Part shown: in pieces, positions 1,563-23,802 of the stretch
Numbering within the stretch: position 1 is the first letter of the stretch
Layout: each line of letters opens with the position of its first letter
Virus genome (UHGV): UHGV-0247665
Reading direction: 5' to 3' (one strand)
DNA from: a virus
Length of the DNA: 25,422 nt
Made by a program: the position numbers and the translations under genes
The notes under the pieces: generated by a model
Told to the model about the DNA's origin: nothing
The model's database searches: none
The model's input: the letters and a program-made list of their open reading frames with translations, nothing else

Positions 1563-1601
1563 TTTGCAAAACGTGCTGGATAGCAAACAAATTATTTGAT
1601 A

Positions 1602-1617
1602 CTGTATAAATATACAG
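1602..1617 (+). promoter_or_regulatory. LexA (SOS) box, CTGT-N8-ACAG
   Basis: 20-mer TACTGTATAAATATACAGTT (about 1600-1619) matches the E. coli LexA consensus TACTGTATATATATACAGTA at 18 of 20 positions with both CTGT and ACAG arms intact. It is preceded by TTGATA (1596-1601) and lies 21 nt upstream of the ATG at 1639. Confidence 0.75.
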
Positions 1618-1638
1618 TTATTACATGGAGAAGATAAG

Positions 1639-1896
1639 ATGCAGCAGTATCACTATCCACTGGAAGACGGATTTACCGAAAGGATTCACACGCCGGGAGG
1701 CGTCAGGTCACTGGTGGAGGGATCGCACTTGATGAAATTACTCCGGGATCTCGATAAGGATGGATTTAATGTCGATGGCCCACTTGCCGAACTGACTGCA
1801 CTGATTAACTACGTCACCAGCTCACAGATGTCTATGCAGGATCTACAAACACATCTCGACTATTGTGCCGAACAATTACGAAAACAAACCAGATAA
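1639..1896 (+). CDS. Small protein (85 aa) homologous to the C-terminal domain of the downstream antirepressor; candidate SOS-controlled antirepressor or modulator
   Basis: ORF track 1639..1896; GGAG at 1627-1630, 8 nt before the ATG. Its sequence (HTPGGVRSLVEGSHLMKLLRDLDKDGFNVDGPLAELT...DLQTHLDY) aligns with antirepressor residues HSPSGVLGLTENSLLMNLLNQLQEDGHDVSGAAAELT...DIQTHAEY at roughly 35-40% identity by eye. Confidence 0.7.
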   Translation: MQQYHYPLEDGFTERIHTPGGVRSLVEGSHLMKLLRDLDKDGFNVDGPLAELTALINYVTSSQMSMQDLQTHLDYCAEQLRKQTR

Positions 1897-1927
1897 GGTT
1901 TGCAATTACCAAATGGAGTGCTTATAT

Positions 1928-1942
1928 TTACCTTTGCGGTAA
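1928..1942. promoter_or_regulatory. TTACC-N5-GGTAA palindromic motif copy (TTTACC-tttgc-GGTAAA)
   Basis: Between the 85-aa ORF stop and the antirepressor leader; followed by TTTACA. Confidence 0.5.
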
Positions 1943-1977
1943 ATTTACATCGCACTCCTCTTGTGCCATAGTAATCG

Positions 1978-1999
1978 GGCACTGGCAAAATCCAGTGCC
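1978..1999 (+). other. Perfect 8-bp inverted repeat stem-loop (GGCACTGG-caaaat-CCAGTGCC) in the antirepressor leader
   Basis: Read directly from the sequence; no U-run follows, so it is not a classical terminator. Confidence 0.5.
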
Positions 2000-2035
2000 G
2001 GGATTGGCGTCACGAGTTACTACAGAGGCACATAT

Positions 2036-2055
2036 GCCGCATAAGCGGTTTTTTT
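2036..2055 (+). terminator. Weak intrinsic terminator-like hairpin (gCCGC-ataa-GCGGt followed by TTTTTTT)
   Basis: 4-5 bp stem followed by seven T residues, 140 nt downstream of the 85-aa ORF and about 150 nt upstream of the antirepressor start. Confidence 0.35.
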
Positions 2056-2208
2056 ATGTGTAAAGCGCACCTATTCTATGGTGGGCTGTGTGGGGGCACC
2101 GAAAGGTGCGCCGGGTCCTTTGTAGCCGGTTACGCCAACCCTGCACAGTTCACCACCAACCGATTGGCGTCGGTAGTGGTGATTAACCTAACTACAAAGG
2201 TGATCGCT

Positions 2209-2895
2209 ATGACTGCTAACGTAACCCCATCTGTTTTTCATTTTGAATCAGAAGCAACCATTCGAGCCATTGTTATTGATGGAAATCCTTGGTTTGTTGC
2301 CAAAGACGTTATTAAAGCTCTTCAACTGACAAACCCCACTATGTCAATAAAATCTCTTGATGATGATGAAAGGGCTAAATTTAACTTAGGCCGTCAAGGC
2401 GAAACCAATATTATCAACGAGTCAGGCCTCTACACACTGTTCCTCCGCTGCCGCGATGCGGTGACACCAGGCACTACCCCCTACCGCTTTCGTAAATGGG
2501 TTACAGGTGAGGTTCTTCCTCAGATCCGCCGCACCGGAAGCTACATTAAAAACTCGCTCCCGCAGGAAGAACGCATAAAGATGGTTGCCGACCAGGTAGC
2601 CAACGCCACGGCGTCAGCAGTAATGCAGGCGATGAAGATAGAGAACAAAACCTACAGCGCCCCGCTGAAGCCCGGCTACCGCAGTTTGATTCACTCGCCG
2701 TCTGGTGTTCTCGGCCTGACGGAGAACTCACTGCTGATGAATCTGCTGAACCAGTTACAGGAAGACGGGCACGACGTATCGGGCGCGGCGGCGGAACTGA
2801 CCACCATGTTCTGCTACATCGTCGGTGTGAGTAAATGCCTGCGTGATATCCAGACCCACGCGGAATACATCAACGACAAGGCAGGGGTCTTCTGA
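2209..2895 (+). CDS. Phage antirepressor with N-terminal Bro-N domain (228 aa from ATG 2209)
   Basis: In frame within ORF track 2056..2895. The ATG at 2209 is preceded by AAAGGTGA. N-terminus SVFHFESEATIRAIVIDGNPWFVAKDVIKAL...NIINESGLYTLFLRCRD...FRKWVTGEVLPQIRRTGSY matches the Bro-N consensus. The sequence upstream of 2209 within the tracked ORF is structured leader, not coding. Confidence 0.85.
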   Translation: MTANVTPSVFHFESEATIRAIVIDGNPWFVAKDVIKALQLTNPTMSIKSLDDDERAKFNLGRQGETNIINESGLYTLFLRCRDAVTPGTTPYRFRKWVTGEVLPQIRRTGSYIKNSLPQEERIKMVADQVANATASAVMQAMKIENKTYSAPLKPGYRSLIHSPSGVLGLTENSLLMNLLNQLQEDGHDVSGAAAELTTMFCYIVGVSKCLRDIQTHAEYINDKAGVF

Positions 2896-3093: not shown

Positions 3094-3312
3094 ATGTTTA
3101 AATTTGATATGCAACTCAACCAAAACTATGCCTCTTTTTACCATCCAGAAACTGGTAAAGCTGTTTTCGTTGACTCTTTCGATAATGAAGAATTTGATAT
3201 CAGAATTGGGACCCTACGCCAAAGTAAGCATGTTGCTACTGTACGTGCATCCAATGATGATGAATTAAATCAAAAAATAAGTGAGGCGACCTCCCGTTAT
3301 CTATGTCTATAA
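3094..3312 (+). CDS. Hypothetical protein (72 aa), first gene of an AT-rich two-gene cassette
   Basis: ORF track 3094..3312; strong SD GGGAGG 5 nt before the ATG. Local GC is well below the flanking phage DNA. No recognisable family. Confidence 0.6.
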   Translation: MFKFDMQLNQNYASFYHPETGKAVFVDSFDNEEFDIRIGTLRQSKHVATVRASNDDELNQKISEATSRYLCL

Positions 3313-3680
3313 CAGAACAACAACTCATTGATCTTGAGGATGAGATTAACGAGATCTTGCAAGAAGATGCGGCAAGAATTCACTTTTCATTTCACGCAGC
3401 ATATGAACGCCTGAACGACGAGAGGAACAAACCGCCAATTACTCTTGCTGAGCTTGAAGATGTGTTTAAATCGTTTATATCTGCACATCTGCAGACTGTT
3501 TTGGATTTTGCTGAAGGTACAACTTTCACCATAAAGTGCAACAAAAGCGCCCTTCATTTTCCTTGCGCCATTGTACACGAAAGAGAGTTTGGGAAAACGT
3601 GGGTTATCCAAAACGTCATTACAGCCATGAGGAAAGTGGGATTCAAGTCTAAAGATTCTATTATCCTCGAAGTTAATTAA
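3303..3680 (+). CDS. Hypothetical acidic protein (125 aa), second gene of the cassette, translationally coupled
   Basis: ORF track 3303..3680. Its ATG at 3303 overlaps the upstream stop at 3310-3312 (ATGTCTATAA) with no independent SD in range. Followed directly by a terminator. Confidence 0.65.
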   Translation: MSITEQQLIDLEDEINEILQEDAARIHFSFHAAYERLNDERNKPPITLAELEDVFKSFISAHLQTVLDFAEGTTFTIKCNKSALHFPCAIVHEREFGKTWVIQNVITAMRKVGFKSKDSIILEVN

Positions 3681-3701
3681 GCCCGCACTGAGGGCTTTTT
3701 T
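3679..3701 (+). terminator. Intrinsic terminator (AAGCCC-gcactga-GGGCTT then TTTT)
   Basis: 6-bp stem with a 7-nt loop and a U-run immediately after the TAA at 3678-3680. Confidence 0.6.
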
Positions 3702-3773
3702 ATGGACGAAACAAAAGTCAGTGCTACACTCATTGACGCCACATTGAGGTGGCTTATAGATGGAAATTTCACA

Positions 3774-3935
3774 ATGAAAAAAGCATTTGCTGCACTGTTC
3801 GTTTTGTTGTCTCTGGTAGCTTCAACTCAGGCCTTTGCCGGTCGTTGTCAGCACGACAGCGACACTGCTGCTGACGGCTCCCGCTGCGGTGGGCGTTCTG
3901 CGGATTCCCGCCCGGGTGGCGGTGGCATTCGTTAA
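3774..3935 (+). CDS. Small secreted protein (53 aa precursor; Sec-type signal peptide, about 31-aa Gly/Arg-rich mature part with two Cys)
   Basis: Internal ATG of ORF track 3702..3935. MKKAFAALFVLLSLVASTQAFA is a canonical signal peptide with an AxA cleavage motif; the mature part is GRCQHDSDTAADGSRCGGRSADSRPGGGGIR. Possible promoter TTGACG (3733-3738) and TATAGA (3755-3760). The SD is weak. Confidence 0.5.
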   Translation: MKKAFAALFVLLSLVASTQAFAGRCQHDSDTAADGSRCGGRSADSRPGGGGIR

Positions 3936-3958
3936 AAACAAGGCCGCGAAAGCGGCCT
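3931..3958 (-). terminator. Intrinsic terminator for the minus-strand lipoprotein gene (7-bp GC stem with GNRA-type loop, U-run on the minus strand)
   Basis: AGGCCGC-GAAA-GCGGCCT at 3941-3958. On the minus strand it is followed by TTGTTTTTAAC. It sits between the convergent genes ending at 3935 (+) and 3967 (-). Confidence 0.55.
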
Positions 3959-3970
3959 GTGACATGTCAC
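3959..3970. repeat. 12-bp perfect palindrome GTGACATGTCAC (copy 1)
   Basis: Exact match; contains the TGA stop of the lipoprotein gene. Confidence 0.6.
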
Positions 3971-4347
3971 GCAACGCAATTATTACCGCGCCATGTAACA
4001 TTTTTAATAATCTTATCAGCACCAAACTCAACGTAAACAGAGCAACTGAAATGGAGTGTATAACCGCCATCAGTTGTTGCGTATGTGTTTGAATATATAG
4101 TATTACCAATTAGATTAGACGTAGTATTATACGTTGTGGTTTGTGGTACGTTATAACTACCAGAGCTTGAGTAAACATACACTCTGTTTCCATCTGGAGA
4201 TGTAAGCTCTCCCTGAGGATACCCCCACTGCTGAACCATTGCGTCTATACTCTGCCCGCGCCACGTAAGCATATTTCTTTCAAACTGTGCAGCTGACTGG
4301 CATCCAACGAGAAGCATAAATCCAAAAATCAAAAATACTTTTCTCAT
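3967..4347 (-). CDS. Outer-membrane lipoprotein (126 aa); candidate lysogenic-conversion or superinfection-exclusion protein
   Basis: In frame within ORF track 3967..4383. The ATG at 4347 is preceded by GGGGG with a 5-nt spacer. N-terminus MRKVFLIFGFMLLVGCQSA carries a lipobox (LLVGC). The mature part is Ser/Thr/Asn/Tyr-rich. The stop codon lies inside the GTGACATGTCAC palindrome. Confidence 0.75.
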   Translation of the reverse strand: MRKVFLIFGFMLLVGCQSAAQFERNMLTWRGQSIDAMVQQWGYPQGELTSPDGNRVYVYSSSGSYNVPQTTTYNTTSNLIGNTIYSNTYATTDGGYTLHFSCSVYVEFGADKIIKNVTWRGNNCVA

Positions 4348-4432
4348 AATTACCCCTATCATGGAAAAACAGCACCAATCCACAAATTAACTAGTTATTT
4401 TATTATTCTTCCGAACAATACAATTCCGAATA

Positions 4433-4555
4433 CTACAAAGCCGAACCATGCCGCTGCACGCAACAGAGATTCCAATTGAAACCCATTTTTATCAAAATGT
4501 ATGAATAGCATAAAAACGCTGCACATATTAGTACAATAAAAGTTATTTGAACCAT
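4433..4555 (-). CDS. Small hydrophobic membrane peptide (about 40 aa), not in the ORF track
   Basis: Tandem ATGs at 4558 and 4555 (minus) lie 2 and 5 nt after the SD AAAGGAG, which itself directly follows the TAA of the 824-aa gene. Reading frame MMVQITFIVLICAAFLCYSYILIKMGFNWNLCCVQRHGSAL*. It is in a different frame from ORF-track entry 4395..4583, which lacks an SD. Confidence 0.45.
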   Translation of the reverse strand: MVQITFIVLICAAFLCYSYILIKMGFNWNLCCVQRHGSAL

Positions 4556-4566
4556 CATATCTCCTT

Positions 4567-7041
4567 TTATTGCGGAGTGACATCCTGTGGTCGCCACCAG
4601 TATGTCTGGTTAAACTCTTTCTTCGAACGTTGCTCCATTTTACGCAAATAGCCTGGTGAAAAATACTCCTGCATCTGGTTAAAGATCATGTGATCGAGAG
4701 CCGCCTTCAAGTACCAGAGATTCGCACCAGGCATCAAACCTTTCCCCAGCTTCACCAGATCACCACCAGTCTGCTCACTCTTCCCTTCCACAGCATTTAA
4801 CGGTATGCCCTGAGCAATCTTCACTACGTCATCAACCAGACCAGCTACCGGGCCAAGCATCGACGCCAGCGCGCCGCTTCCGTACCTAGTGTGATCTGAC
4901 AATAAAAAGTCACCGTAAAGGCCAAGACCACCACCTTTCAGTAGAGCACCAAGCCAGAATTTTGCGGCATCTTCTCCTGTCATCTCTCGAGGATTACGAC
5001 CAGACGCAAGGTCGTTAAGTTGCTGCGACAAAGCGCCAAGAATGGTCGTACTGGCAATAAACGTCGCAATATATGCCGCACGCCCACCAGCAGACGGCAT
5101 ACCCATAGCGCGTGACCAGTGACGCATAACAACCGAGATAGGGAACGATTTAAACAGGAAAACACTTCTCGTTAATTCACCTTTCCATGTTCCACGCTGA
5201 ATACCAGAACCGGTTATCAGTTGCTCACGTGCTCCCGGTGTAATAACAGCCATATCAACTTCTTCAGTTACGGCACCGAGCAGTTTACGCATTGCCTCAA
5301 ATTTCACGCGTTCAGGCTCACCAAGATGTTTAACTGCTGAATCAGAGATACGCATAATGCTTTCCGGTGTCAGCATCGTATTATTACCGTTCCCCCAGTC
5401 CTCCTGTTTCGCCAGCTTCCATACGCTCCAGTCTGTGTCAGTAATCCCTTTGCTTTTCAGGATACGAAAATCAGAGTCATCGAGGCTACGAAGGTCTGGT
5501 GTCCGTGACACTACTTCTCCCAGGCTTCCCATCATGGTTACGCCATAGGCGCGCTTGTGCGCATCTGACCATGCTGTAAGCCCACTGGCACGCATTACCG
5601 CCGTTGCCGCCCAACGAGACACTGACGGCCCCATATTATCCATCGCCCAGCGGTTAACGCTGCCAAGTAGAGATTCCATCGCCAGACCAGCGCGGCGCGC
5701 CCGCGCAAGTTCTGTACGGTTCGTTGGGTCCATAGCTTCAAGCTGGTTGCGGAATAACTGGTTCATTGGAAGGTTGGTAACCTTCGCAGACAGATACATG
5801 GTTCCAAGATCAGAGAACGATGACAGCAACGCGGATCCGAGTCTGCTGGCAACCAGCCAGTTGCGGATATTGTCAGACCATCGCGCGATGTGCGGATTCG
5901 CTACAGGCTGTGTCTTTCCGGAAATAAAGTTGTACAGATTCTCTGTGTTGTTCGCCAGCCGCTCGACTTTACCGGTTTTACTCGGGTTAGCTGTTGCCGT
6001 TTCTGCCTTCACCTGATCAAGAAGAGAGCGGAAAACATGATCGGGGTTTGGGCCATATGTTTCCACCAGTGCAATATCTTTACTGATACCTTCCAGGTGA
6101 CCGACCATGATTTCCCATAGAGAGCGATCGCCATAAAGTTGCTGATATTGCAGATAGGAATCTGCATCTTTGAAATGTATCTGTCGTGATGCATTACCAC
6201 GGTTAGCACGTGCGCCGGAAATTCGCATTCCGGTATCAGTAAGCTTATTCAGCCCACCAGTAGCGATCGTGTTATAAGCCTCTCCAAGAAATGAAGACAA
6301 CTCGGCATCGTTCATCAGTTGTCCATCGGCTCGGATATAATATTTGCGATCCAGCTTACCTATAACATCGCTAACCCACTTATCCTTTGATACTGCCCCA
6401 ACCTTTTCCATAGAATGATGTTGAGGGATCCCCCAGTTTTCGAGATAGCCAATGTCCCCACCAGCATCATTAAACCGGCGGCGCAGCAGCTCTGTAACTT
6501 CTCTCCACGCCTTAGCACCGTTTCTTGCTTTAGCATTGCCAGTATTTTGCCCCCGCATTTCATATACCAGGTCACGTACGCCCGCTTCATCTTCAAACAG
6601 ACCAAAAAAGCGAGGATCAACTGCTTCGAATGCCTCCTGCAATTGACTCAATGCATAATCACGGGTGGCTTTTGTTCTGGATTCAACAGAGAGGAAATTA
6701 GATTTACCGTCTGCATTAAAAGCTATAGTACGGTTAAGAGCGCCAAGTTTCCCATCAGCCCCTTGATAGCTATTGATAAATTTATCCAATCTCTGACGCG
6801 CGGCTATAGTGAGAGCCACACGACGTTTCTTTAATGCCGCTTCTCGCTGTAATTCTTCAGATGCCAATTGTGCTGCTCGATATAGCCGCTCTGATTCGGA
6901 AAGTTGTCGCCACGACATAGGGTCATCACGAGCAATGGAGCGCATATTTCGATAAATGCGGTCTTCAATGTTCTGTATTTCTCGCGCCGTTAACATGCGC
7001 TGCGCCGCCTGCTGAACCGCTTGTATACATTCCTGTCTCAT
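4567..7041 (-). CDS. Internal virion / ejection protein (824 aa)
   Basis: ORF track. Last large gene of the minus-strand core-protein block, with a Gly-rich hydrophobic C-terminal region typical of membrane-inserting ejection proteins. Functional analogue of T7 gp14-16 by position and size only. Confidence 0.75.
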   Translation of the reverse strand: MRQECIQAVQQAAQRMLTAREIQNIEDRIYRNMRSIARDDPMSWRQLSESERLYRAAQLASEELQREAALKKRRVALTIAARQRLDKFINSYQGADGKLGALNRTIAFNADGKSNFLSVESRTKATRDYALSQLQEAFEAVDPRFFGLFEDEAGVRDLVYEMRGQNTGNAKARNGAKAWREVTELLRRRFNDAGGDIGYLENWGIPQHHSMEKVGAVSKDKWVSDVIGKLDRKYYIRADGQLMNDAELSSFLGEAYNTIATGGLNKLTDTGMRISGARANRGNASRQIHFKDADSYLQYQQLYGDRSLWEIMVGHLEGISKDIALVETYGPNPDHVFRSLLDQVKAETATANPSKTGKVERLANNTENLYNFISGKTQPVANPHIARWSDNIRNWLVASRLGSALLSSFSDLGTMYLSAKVTNLPMNQLFRNQLEAMDPTNRTELARARRAGLAMESLLGSVNRWAMDNMGPSVSRWAATAVMRASGLTAWSDAHKRAYGVTMMGSLGEVVSRTPDLRSLDDSDFRILKSKGITDTDWSVWKLAKQEDWGNGNNTMLTPESIMRISDSAVKHLGEPERVKFEAMRKLLGAVTEEVDMAVITPGAREQLITGSGIQRGTWKGELTRSVFLFKSFPISVVMRHWSRAMGMPSAGGRAAYIATFIASTTILGALSQQLNDLASGRNPREMTGEDAAKFWLGALLKGGGLGLYGDFLLSDHTRYGSGALASMLGPVAGLVDDVVKIAQGIPLNAVEGKSEQTGGDLVKLGKGLMPGANLWYLKAALDHMIFNQMQEYFSPGYLRKMEQRSKKEFNQTYWWRPQDVTPQ

Positions 7042-20642: not shown

Positions 20643-20657
20643 TTACCTTTCAGGTAA
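20643..20657. promoter_or_regulatory. TTACC-N5-GGTAA palindromic motif copy (ATTACC-tttca-GGTAAG)
   Basis: Intergenic, between the 68-aa/portal gene start and the tRNA; a TTGACA hexamer lies at 20621-20626. Confidence 0.5.
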
Positions 20658-20979: not shown

Positions 20980-21056
20980 GTGGCATTAGCTCAGTTGGAC
21001 AGAGCAACCGCCTTCTAAGCGGTTGGTCGCAGGTTCGAATCCTGCATGCCACGCCA
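20980..21056 (+). tRNA. tRNA-Arg (anticodon UCU), 77 nt with encoded CCA
   Basis: Folded by hand: 7-bp acceptor stem GTGGCAT/ATGCCAC, D-arm, anticodon stem ACCGC/GCGGT with loop CTTCTAA (U33, anticodon TCT, A37), T-arm GCAGG-TTCGAAT-CCTGC, discriminator G, CCA. Close to the E. coli argU-type tRNA. Confidence 0.92.
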
Positions 21057-23177: not shown

Positions 23178-23770
23178 TGATTACCATCCTGACGTTCTTT
23201 GAGTCGCTTCCTGGCTGCTGCTATGCGATCAGCAATTGTCACATTCACATTAACATCCAGACGTTCTTTGAACGCGTTGACATCAACATGCTTACCAATC
23301 AGCTCAAGGTTCTTCACCTTGTCAGGCCATTTAATTTTTTTGAGGATTGTCTCTATCGAATCCTCGTTCATGTTCATGATGGTCGATGACAGATCAAAGC
23401 CACTAAGCGTAGTGCGCCAGATTTTCGGCCACTCACGGATTGGTTTAAGGCTCCCATCGTCGTTGAGGATGTCGATCACGTCCATCTGGTCGATCTGCAC
23501 CAGGCGCATGAGAACGTAATCAGCACTGACGCGCATTCGTTTGTTGCGCTCCTCCATCAACTCGGCAATCCGTTTTTGAATGCGTTCATCGCGCATCATG
23601 ACACTGGCTTTAACTGCCGCTGTATTTGGGGAGAATCCTGCGTTAATCGCTGCCTGAGTCTGGTTTTCAGGCGTTTTGATGTATGACTGGCAATAAGCCT
23701 CCTGCATTGCTGTTAGTGGCTTAAATTGCGTTGATTTGCGTTTATAGGTTTTAGGTTCAGCAGGCATCAT
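23174..23770 (-). CDS. Terminase small subunit (about 199 aa from ATG 23770)
   Basis: ORF track 23174..23848 uses a TTG start. I prefer the tandem ATGs at 23770 and 23767, preceded by GGTGG, because a terminator hairpin and motif cluster occupy 23771-23848. The LTAMQEAYCQSYIKTPENQTQAAINAGFSPNTAAVKA region resembles small-terminase (Terminase_2-type) N-terminal domains. Confidence 0.75.
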   Translation of the reverse strand: MMPAEPKTYKRKSTQFKPLTAMQEAYCQSYIKTPENQTQAAINAGFSPNTAAVKASVMMRDERIQKRIAELMEERNKRMRVSADYVLMRLVQIDQMDVIDILNDDGSLKPIREWPKIWRTTLSGFDLSSTIMNMNEDSIETILKKIKWPDKVKNLELIGKHVDVNAFKERLDVNVNVTIADRIAAARKRLKERQDGNQ

Positions 23771-23787
23771 AACCACCGTGGTAATAG

Positions 23788-23802
23788 TTACCGTTTTGGT
23801 AA
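23788..23802. promoter_or_regulatory. TTACC-N5-GGTAA palindromic motif copy within a cluster of GGTAATAGT repeats
   Basis: GGTAATAGTTACC-gtttt-GGTAATAGTACC lies 20-40 nt upstream of the small terminase ATG. Confidence 0.5.

Follow-up and report, generated by a model that had tools for sequence, protein, structure and literature searches.

Two paralogous antirepressors under apparently separate controls in an epsilon15/phiV10-like prophage of Escherichia coli

Introduction

Why would a temperate phage carry the same kind of antirepressor domain twice, once as a free-standing protein and once at the end of a Bro-N protein? The question is raised by the UHGV virus genome UHGV-0247665, a stretch of 25,422 nucleotides that we analysed at its full length (the window). 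On its plus strand are a gene for a protein of 85 amino acids, which we call Ant, and a gene for a protein of 228 amino acids with an N-terminal Bro-N domain and an Ant-like C-terminal domain (AntC). A first-pass annotation of this DNA had noticed the resemblance and proposed that the small protein could be the actual antirepressor, a decoy, or a modulator of the Bro-N protein.

The reading that we favor, with a probability of roughly 0.72, is that Ant is driven by the SOS response, that Bro-N::AntC is locked by a C4 antisense RNA, and that these two differently wired antirepressors both act on the phage repressor Rep. For this reading we computed the homologies, the RNA family matches, the complementarity and co-variation of the C4 loop and its targets, the synteny, and the joint presence of Ant and Rep in phages. 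All the parts of the locus are of known kinds, and the small protein is already characterised. The 1.4-kb locus links the structure of Ant and Rep from phage SPC32H, the C4-isrK lock of P1, N15, and Gifsy-1, and the poorly understood Bro-N "antirepressors." It would be a natural system in which two antagonists of one repressor are placed under SOS and RNA-immunity inputs, respectively.

Results

The small protein as an SOS antirepressor

The small gene and its LexA box are as follows.

1639-1896, plus strand: ant, encoding an 85-amino-acid antirepressor, ortholog of SPC32H Ant (tblastn, PDB, and PHROG matches).
1600-1619, plus strand: LexA box TACTGTATAAATATACAGTT (CTGT-N8-ACAG), 20 bp 5' of the start codon, with 18 of 20 positions matching the E. 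coli consensus.

Several lines of evidence strongly support the prediction that the small protein is an SOS antirepressor of the SPC32H Ant type, whose biology is already known. First, it is 88% identical to ant of SPC32H (tblastn). Homologs are found in 35 phage records, and the gene from SPC32H and SPC32N is annotated as "ant: anti-repressor protein." Second, residues 2-84 match chain E of PDB:5D50, "Anti-repressor protein" (E = 4e-47); in this structure, SPC32H Ant was crystallised with its repressor Rep. The protein also matches PHROG 450 (9e-48), which is labelled "unknown function." A Pfam search found no family for it. (A hit to DUF724 scored 17.6 bits against a cut-off of 38.4 and is noise.) Third, the first-pass annotation had placed the small gene under direct LexA control, and there is indeed a LexA box, although it lies just outside the segment that had been described (1639-2895). 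The box is conserved in 8 relatives, and its position is kept in ZX5, phiV10, SPC32H, Tyrion, and a Salmonella prophage. In the Klebsiella relatives, it has one mismatch (ATGT-N8-ACAG). We could not place the promoter of ant exactly: several pairings of hexamers are possible and none is convincing.

In SPC32H, Ant is repressed by LexA and inactivates Rep, a non-cleavable repressor, by binding it directly (Kim & Ryu 2013, via PMC7380047). Four subunits make up SPC32H Ant, and this tetramer breaks the Rep tetramer by binding two Rep dimers (PMC9638917). Prophages of the Uetakevirus phiV10 type are induced by a DNA-damaging microcin. Among the roles that had been proposed for the small protein, "actual antirepressor" is thus the one that the similarity to SPC32H Ant strongly supports. 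In nearly all records ant is annotated as hypothetical, and it could be re-annotated as an SOS antirepressor.

The Bro-N protein ends in a paralog of Ant

The second gene has these parts.

2209-2895, plus strand: Bro-N::AntC gene, 228 amino acids; the ATG at 2209 is invariant in 7 relatives.
2260-2520, plus strand: Bro-N domain, amino acids 18-104 (Pfam PF02498, 3.8e-19, 69.5 bits against a cut-off of 25.6).
2647-2880, plus strand: AntC domain, amino acids 147-224, with a linker 5' of the domain (matches to 5D50_E and PHROG 450).

Ant, over its residues 2-79, gives a gap-free alignment to residues 147-224 of the Bro-N protein (31/78 identities or 40%, 58% positives, E = 8e-16; BLASTP), and the blocks that the first-pass annotation had named are all present (IHTPGGV/IHSPSGV, LMKLL/LMNLL, DGFNVDG/DGHDVSG, AELT, and QTH). 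The Smith-Waterman score is 161, as compared to 26.6 +/- 4.4 (maximum 61) across 2000 shuffles of either partner, which is far beyond chance (z ~31). AntC also matches 5D50_E (E = 1e-13) and PHROG 450 (5e-36). Fifteen residues are invariant in both classes (Y4, H17, P19, G21, L25, S29, L35, D41, G42, V45, A50, E51, Y58, T71, and H72). As with Ant, no Pfam family covers the AntC domain (Pfam search). The C-terminal domain of the Bro-N protein, which has no Pfam family and a PHROG of "unknown function," would therefore gain a structurally characterised, repressor-binding identity.

The DNA of ant and of the AntC region is only 47% identical, with 32% identity at third codon positions, so the duplication is old rather than recent. 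Purifying selection acts on both copies, with a ratio of nonsynonymous to synonymous substitution rates (dN/dS) of 0.04-0.25 in comparisons to relatives. The first-pass annotation had described the small protein as a paralog of the full-length antirepressor. This polarity is reversed, with the small Ant as the archetype and the Bro-N protein as the derived fusion. In the searchable literature we found no description of the paralogy of Ant and AntC, of the spread of the Ant domain as a module, of the dual wiring, or of where the operators are placed.

The start of the Bro-N gene had been placed too far upstream. Neither the ATG at 2209 nor its AAGG Shine-Dalgarno sequence varies among seven relatives, and NCBI calls the 228-amino-acid form. 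Some gene callers report a longer open reading frame (ORF) of 279 amino acids from the ATG at 2056. This is an over-extension because isrK and C4 (Rfam) occupy the intergenic region; the stretch 2056-2208 is the C4 RNA.

The Bro-N::AntC protein is probably an accessory second antirepressor. Its counterpart in phage ZX5, ORF4, is 81% identical overall to the protein from the window. Overexpression of ORF4 lowered the lysogens from 10^9 to 10^6 and the transcription of the repressor by 75% (PMC9782041). This is the sole direct experiment on a protein of the Bro-N::AntC type. SPC32H, epsilon15, and the other Salmonella phages in our collection all lack the gene.

The Ant domain is found behind four kinds of N-terminal domain

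A search with a profile of the Ant domain found only 65 clusters among 1.84 billion representative proteins. (A word-indexed protein search with the C-terminal fragment gave few and partly truncated matches, so a full-length query and an exhaustive profile search were needed.) Some members of the family stand alone, and others are C-terminal to a Bro-N, AntA, Rha, or ORF6N domain. Between the window and ZX5, dN is just 0.005 for AntC and 0.28 for the Bro-N domain, and the two cassettes of one prophage (L025, below) differ in the same way. AntC is conserved while Bro-N has diverged, and therefore the C-terminal domain goes along with the lineage of the phage and with its Rep, while the N-terminal domain is exchangeable. 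In sequence comparisons, then, the Ant-like domain behaves as expected of a target-recognition module. The first-pass annotation had noted that the C-terminal domain of antirepressors usually confers specificity or contacts the repressor. The mosaic evidence (four N-terminal domains, and AntC kept as Bro-N diverges) fits this idea.

A natural hybrid also bears on the function of the two domains. P0142, an 84-amino-acid protein (L017, 3001-3255; 4 contigs), has an N-terminal half from Ant and a C-terminal half from AntC, as would be expected of the product of recombination between the two paralogs. It sits behind a palindrome (see below) and a LexA-like box, and isrK, C4, and Bro-N sequence are absent downstream. 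Its sequence suggests that the halves of Ant and AntC may be functionally interchangeable.

We also considered the 95-amino-acid, stand-alone "class II" proteins (P0137 and similar) as a second free-standing family, but they proved to be left over in a Klebsiella element that has decayed. Beside its integrase, a further epsilon15-like prophage of E. coli encodes an AntA-domain protein with only the C-terminal half of AntC (L016, 6001-6531). The same contig has a 194-amino-acid, Rep-sized helix-turn-helix (HTH) protein. The AntA protein is one more Ant-like fusion, at another genomic position, and has possibly decayed.

A predicted isrK-C4 RNA lock precedes the Bro-N gene

Between ant and the Bro-N gene we found the following elements.

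1944-1972, plus strand: promoter-like site of isrK, TTTACA-17 nt-CATAGT with TG in front (consensus scan; same site in Tyrion).
1979-2055, plus strand: isrK / c4-a1b1 element (Rfam RF01394, 65.5 bits, gathering threshold 50).
2020-2028, plus strand: C4 decoy site CUACAGAGG in isrK, which pairs with the C4 loop over 9 bp, including one G-U.
2036-2055, plus strand: intrinsic terminator of isrK (terminator scan).
2074-2160, plus strand: C4 antisense RNA (Rfam RF01695, 79.5 bits, gathering threshold 45, full length 1-87).
2117-2125, plus strand: C4 loop CCUUUGUAG, complementary to the Bro-N Shine-Dalgarno site and to isrK.
2192-2200, plus strand: C4 target CUACAAAGG, overlapping the Bro-N Shine-Dalgarno sequence, with 9 perfect base pairs to the C4 loop.

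The first-pass annotation overlooked these RNA genes and described ant as directly upstream of the Bro-N gene. In fact the two genes are not directly adjacent, as isrK and C4 lie in the 310-bp gap between them. The promoter-like site ends 7 nt before the start of isrK, and the block CTTGTGCCATAGT, which includes its -10 element, is invariant in 7 relatives. A terminator scan found no terminator-like site between the stop codon of ant and isrK.

As judged from its sequence, this arrangement of isrK, C4, and Bro-N is an antisense lock of the P1-immI / N15 / Gifsy-1 type, and by analogy we infer that C4 blocks the translation of the Bro-N protein in the window prophage. C4 is present in every relative that carries the Bro-N gene and is not found in SPC32H or in the hybrid locus (L017). 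Furthermore, the loop, the decoy, and the Shine-Dalgarno site co-vary across lineages, and also between the two L025 cassettes. ZX5 and phiV10 share the same 1-nt deletion in the C4 loop, in the isrK site, and in the Shine-Dalgarno site, and in Klebsiella ST11-OXA245phi3.2 the three C4-pairing sites read CCGUUUAG, CUAAACGG, and CUAAGCGG. These 1-nt indels are ready-made cases for studying the origin of C4 specificity variants.

Some E. coli prophages (L025, 2270-3193 on the plus strand and 4307-5235 on the minus strand; also L024 and L027) have two convergent isrK-C4-BroN::AntC cassettes. In these prophages, the two AntC domains are near-identical, the Bro-N domains differ, and the specificities of the C4 loop and target differ by a matched 1-nt indel.

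The C4 region also contains a short ORF. Its ATG (2078) is conserved and opens 15 codons here, with a TAG stop at 2123-2125, 84 nt before the ATG at 2209. The counterpart in ZX5 has 37 codons ("ash family") and ends 5 nt before the Bro-N start codon. The difference in length is due to the same 1-nt indel that sets the C4 specificity.

Rep and its putative operators

The first-pass annotation correctly placed the prophage repressor outside the window. We found homologs of Rep in 37 phage records, including KM389360, which is 100% identical to the window, and all the relatives have one. Rep of the E. coli type has 194 amino acids (WP_000836293.1). Rep matches 5D50_A (E = 3.5e-42). The phages with Rep and the phages with Ant are nearly the same set (16 and 15 from E. 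coli, 12 and 12 from Salmonella, 4 and 4 from Klebsiella, and 3 and 3 from Enterobacter). The precomputed Pfam results for Rep include only faint HTH families, and no peptidase (S24) domain was detected. This suggests that Rep is not self-cleaving and would require an antirepressor for induction. There are at least three types of Rep, which are 43-45% identical and have operator half-sites in common.

The likely operator is the palindrome TTACC-N5-GGTAA. It occurs in the rep-cro intergenic region, with three copies in SPC32H and two in an E. coli relative, and because it fills these regions, it is probably the Rep operator. The window has five exact copies and one copy with one mismatch, as compared to 0.48 expected (about 12-fold). 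A motif scan of the window placed them at 1548-1562, 1928-1942, 2962-2976, 20643-20657, 23770-23784, and 23788-23802 (no strand assigned). Three of these flank the genes discussed here.

1548-1562, no strand assigned: palindrome TTACCTTTCGGGTAA, probable Rep operator, ~54 bp 5' of the LexA box; position kept in 8 relatives including SPC32H.
1928-1942, no strand assigned: palindrome TTACCTTTGCGGTAA, probable Rep operator, abutting the -35 element of the isrK promoter.
2962-2976, no strand assigned: palindrome TTACCCCAAAGGTAA, 3' of the Bro-N gene and 5' of the cargo ORFs at 3094-3935; ZX5 has an equivalent after its Bro-N gene.

The copy at 1928 is ~51 bp before the start of isrK. In 7/7 relatives its half-sites are invariant and its 5-nt spacer is variable. 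Two other copies are within the gene for the terminase small subunit, 46-78 nt from its 5' end.

A model with two routes to the inactivation of Rep

We propose that the two genes respond to different signals. LexA would occupy the box at 1600-1619 until DNA damage removes it, and Ant would then be made. Ant would bind Rep dimers and so break up the DNA-binding Rep tetramer. The Bro-N gene would be transcribed from a promoter of its own, PisrK, and most of these transcripts would stop at the isrK terminator. The RNA that reads through would carry both C4 and the Bro-N message, and C4 would occlude the ribosome-binding site of the Bro-N gene. If there were an excess of isrK, or if the isrK:C4 ratio were altered, then the site would be freed, Bro-N::AntC would be made, and it would disable Rep via its Ant-like domain. 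Ant and AntC most likely have one class of Rep as their common target.

Parts of this model are taken from the literature, namely that SPC32H Ant is controlled by LexA and binds Rep, that AnrP of Gifsy-1 is activated through IsrK, and that lysogeny drops when ZX5 ORF4 is overexpressed. The binding of Rep by AntC, the block to translation by C4 in this prophage, and the role of the palindromes as Rep operators are our inferences.

The model could be extended to a two-stage trigger. Because no terminator-like site was found between ant and isrK, the SOS-induced ant mRNA should end in isrK and so carry the C4 decoy. This mRNA could titrate C4 and unlock Bro-N::AntC, for an irreversible feed-forward; the palindromes would let Rep set the level of its own antagonists, and Ant and AntC might disable different variants of Rep. 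We consider this extension speculative and unlikely.

Several observations weigh against our proposal that both proteins are antirepressors of Rep. First, in phiV10 (L001, 3710-4389, PhiV10p23/p22) and in phages 9 and 10 of the O157 typing set, a frameshift within AntC interrupts the Bro-N gene and leaves a product of 194 amino acids and a 29-amino-acid ORF. A viable temperate phage can therefore do without the second antirepressor. Second, same-phage pairs of Ant and AntC are no closer than cross-phage pairs (36-44% identity in every combination). Third, Rep of the E. coli type and Rep of SPC32H are just 43% identical, while Ant is 88% identical and the operator half-sites are the same. It is possible that the contact surface is conserved, that ant has been exchanged horizontally, or that Ant has a broad specificity. 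With this disparity, and with no signal from the within-phage pairs, the specificities of Ant and AntC cannot be read from their sequences, and the window's Ant is only presumed to fit the E. coli type of Rep. Fourth, translational coupling of the kind seen with orf45 is unlikely here because the ORF at 2078 has only 15 codons.

Fifth, structure prediction did not confirm the fold of AntC. In an AlphaFold2 model of the full-length Bro-N protein as a monomer, the Bro-N domain is confident, and the linker and the C-terminal domain are low in confidence (predicted local distance difference test (pLDDT) below 60 for the C-terminal domain). A monomer model of AntC by itself had a pLDDT of 79, and Foldseek found no match to it in the PDB with E <= 0.001, not even 5D50. 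As this model has no match in the PDB, the identity of the AntC fold is argued from the alignments. The fold comparison is not informative, and the probable reason is that Ant is an obligate oligomer.

Alternative explanations

One alternative is that Ant acts on the phage's own Rep and Bro-N::AntC is aimed at heterologous Reps. It would then be a factor for anti-immunity or cross-talk, like Ant from P22 or P1, and would act during superinfection or during co-induction of Uetakevirus lysogens. A C4-type lock is the classic silencer of an anti-immunity gene in lysogens, as at immI of P1, and this is in accord with such a role. So is the label "anti-immunity" that the annotators of phiV10 gave to the Bro-N gene. 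In addition, the slot between the tail-fibre and virion genes gathers KilA-N proteins, P22_AR_N with Arc, or a second Bro-N::AntC cassette in relatives, and the three or more types of Rep, at 43-45% identity, share half-sites. But the divergence of AntC, like that of Ant, parallels that of the phage lineage, and ORF4 of ZX5 acts on the lysis-lysogeny balance of ZX5 itself. We consider this alternative somewhat unlikely, and it and our proposal are not mutually exclusive.

Another alternative is that AntC serves only for tetramerisation. The Bro-N protein would then work by binding DNA, not by binding Rep, and the likeness of AntC to Ant would mean that a coiled helical scaffold has been used again. 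DNA binding is the function ascribed to Bro-N domains, and the residues that are invariant in both Ant and AntC could be structural. Also, SPC32H Ant is a tetramer (PMC9638917). However, the domain is confined to phages with a Rep-type repressor; it is joined to four different N-terminal domains, as one would expect of a module with a specific target; and the natural hybrid has the C-terminal half of AntC within a stand-alone Ant. And ZX5 ORF4 behaves as an antirepressor (PMC9782041). Overall, we think that a purely structural role for AntC is improbable.

Finally, the idea from the first-pass annotation that the small protein is a decoy or a modulator, with the Bro-N protein as the real inducer, found nothing in its support and is very improbable: mixed tetramers of Ant and AntC are conceivable, as these are paralogs of a tetramer-former, but efficient mixed assembly is doubtful at 40% identity, phiV10 has no intact AntC, and SPC32H and all of the Salmonella epsilon15-like phages in our collection carry just the small gene, through which the SOS response induces them (PMC7380047).

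Comparison to known systems

The closest known system is Ant/Rep of SPC32H. The window shares with it Ant (88% identity), the position of the LexA box, the slot between the tail-fibre and virion genes, and the upstream palindrome. Its Rep is homologous to the E. coli type of Rep, with the same TTACC-N5-GGTAA sites in the rep-cro region. SPC32H differs in that isrK, C4, and the Bro-N gene are all absent, a terminator directly follows ant, and Rep is 43% identical. The source studies for SPC32H Ant and Rep (PDB:5D50 and PDB:5D4Z) are reportedly Kim & Ryu 2013 (J Virol) and Kim et al. 2016 (PNAS).

The RNA lock resembles immI of P1 and P7, where icd lies between the c4 RNA and ant1/ant2, and the antirepressor operon of N15; both also have a1b1/isrK, then C4, and then an antirepressor whose ribosome-binding site is complementary to the C4 loop. 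In these locks, as in the window locus, specificity variants arise through compensatory changes. N15 has the same Rfam layout as the window, and its gp30 shares the Bro-N domain. The antirepressor operon of N15 is said to be controlled by LexA, and Ant1 and Ant2 of P1 are said to share their C-terminal part through in-frame starts. In the window, unlike in P1 and N15, LexA control and the C4 lock belong to two separate genes with paralogous domains, and the C-terminal domain resembles SPC32H Ant, with no similarity at E <= 1e-3 outside of Rep-carrying phages. Also, there is no long icd-like ORF as in P1, only the 15-codon ORF. The seqA-CI-seqC system of P4 has been described as structurally homologous.

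In Gifsy-1, IsrK acts in trans to activate the translation of AnrP, and expression of this antirepressor induces the prophage without a need for SOS (Hershko-Shalev et al. 2016, PMC4825925). The isrK-orf45-anrP locus is like the window in that isrK has its own promoter and a leaky terminator and is followed by C4 (STnc1160) and an antirepressor. The c4-a1b1 family in Rfam overlaps isrK in Gifsy-1. AnrP differs from the Bro-N protein of the window in that it combines an ORF6N domain with an unrelated C-terminus, and the coupling to orf45 is not kept in the window. No Gifsy record was among the tblastn matches of the window's Ant. A small ORF next to dinI in Gifsy-1, taken as the candidate small antirepressor and possibly GfoA, has no similarity to the C-terminus of AnrP, so the pattern of paralogy is not general.

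ORF4 of ZX5, annotated as "anti-repressor," is from the same genus and is syntenic, with a near-identical AntC; its Bro-N domain and its C4 specificity differ from those in the window. The ZX5 paper uses neither "SPC32H" nor "Bro-N," and its passages on the repressor and anti-repressor do not mention the small Ant (annotated as hypothetical), the RNAs, or the paralogy (PMC9782041).

Genomic setting

The window is the tail-fibre-to-terminase part of an epsilon15/phiV10-like (Uetakevirus) prophage of E. coli. The 1.5 kb around the ant/Bro-N locus is 100% identical to "Escherichia phage Phi05_1387 B" and 92-95% identical to phiV10, TL-2011b, ZX5, and other Uetakevirus (epsilon15-like) podophages. 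About one fifth of complete E. coli genomes match the locus at least partly: the 1.5-kb segment was matched in 998/5426 genomes, including 268 with a match over at least 80% of its length. The tail-fibre gene is at the left end on the minus strand, followed by the structural genes and then by the terminase. The immunity region is outside the window, several kb past its right end on the prophage map. In phiV10, ZX5, and SPC32H, ant lies between the gene for the tail fibre or tailspike and the genes for virion proteins.

The slot 3' of the Bro-N gene (3094-4383 in the window; also L011, L017, and L020-L024) is a variable cargo region. In the window it holds four small ORFs, whose PHROG matches are only to "unknown" or membrane-protein families. 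In relatives, this slot contains toxin-antitoxin genes (HicAB or YafO) or KilA-N and P22_AR_N antirepressors along with Arc-like repressors.

One more feature lies among the structural and packaging genes.

20980-21053, plus strand: tRNA gene (Rfam, 73.3 bits).

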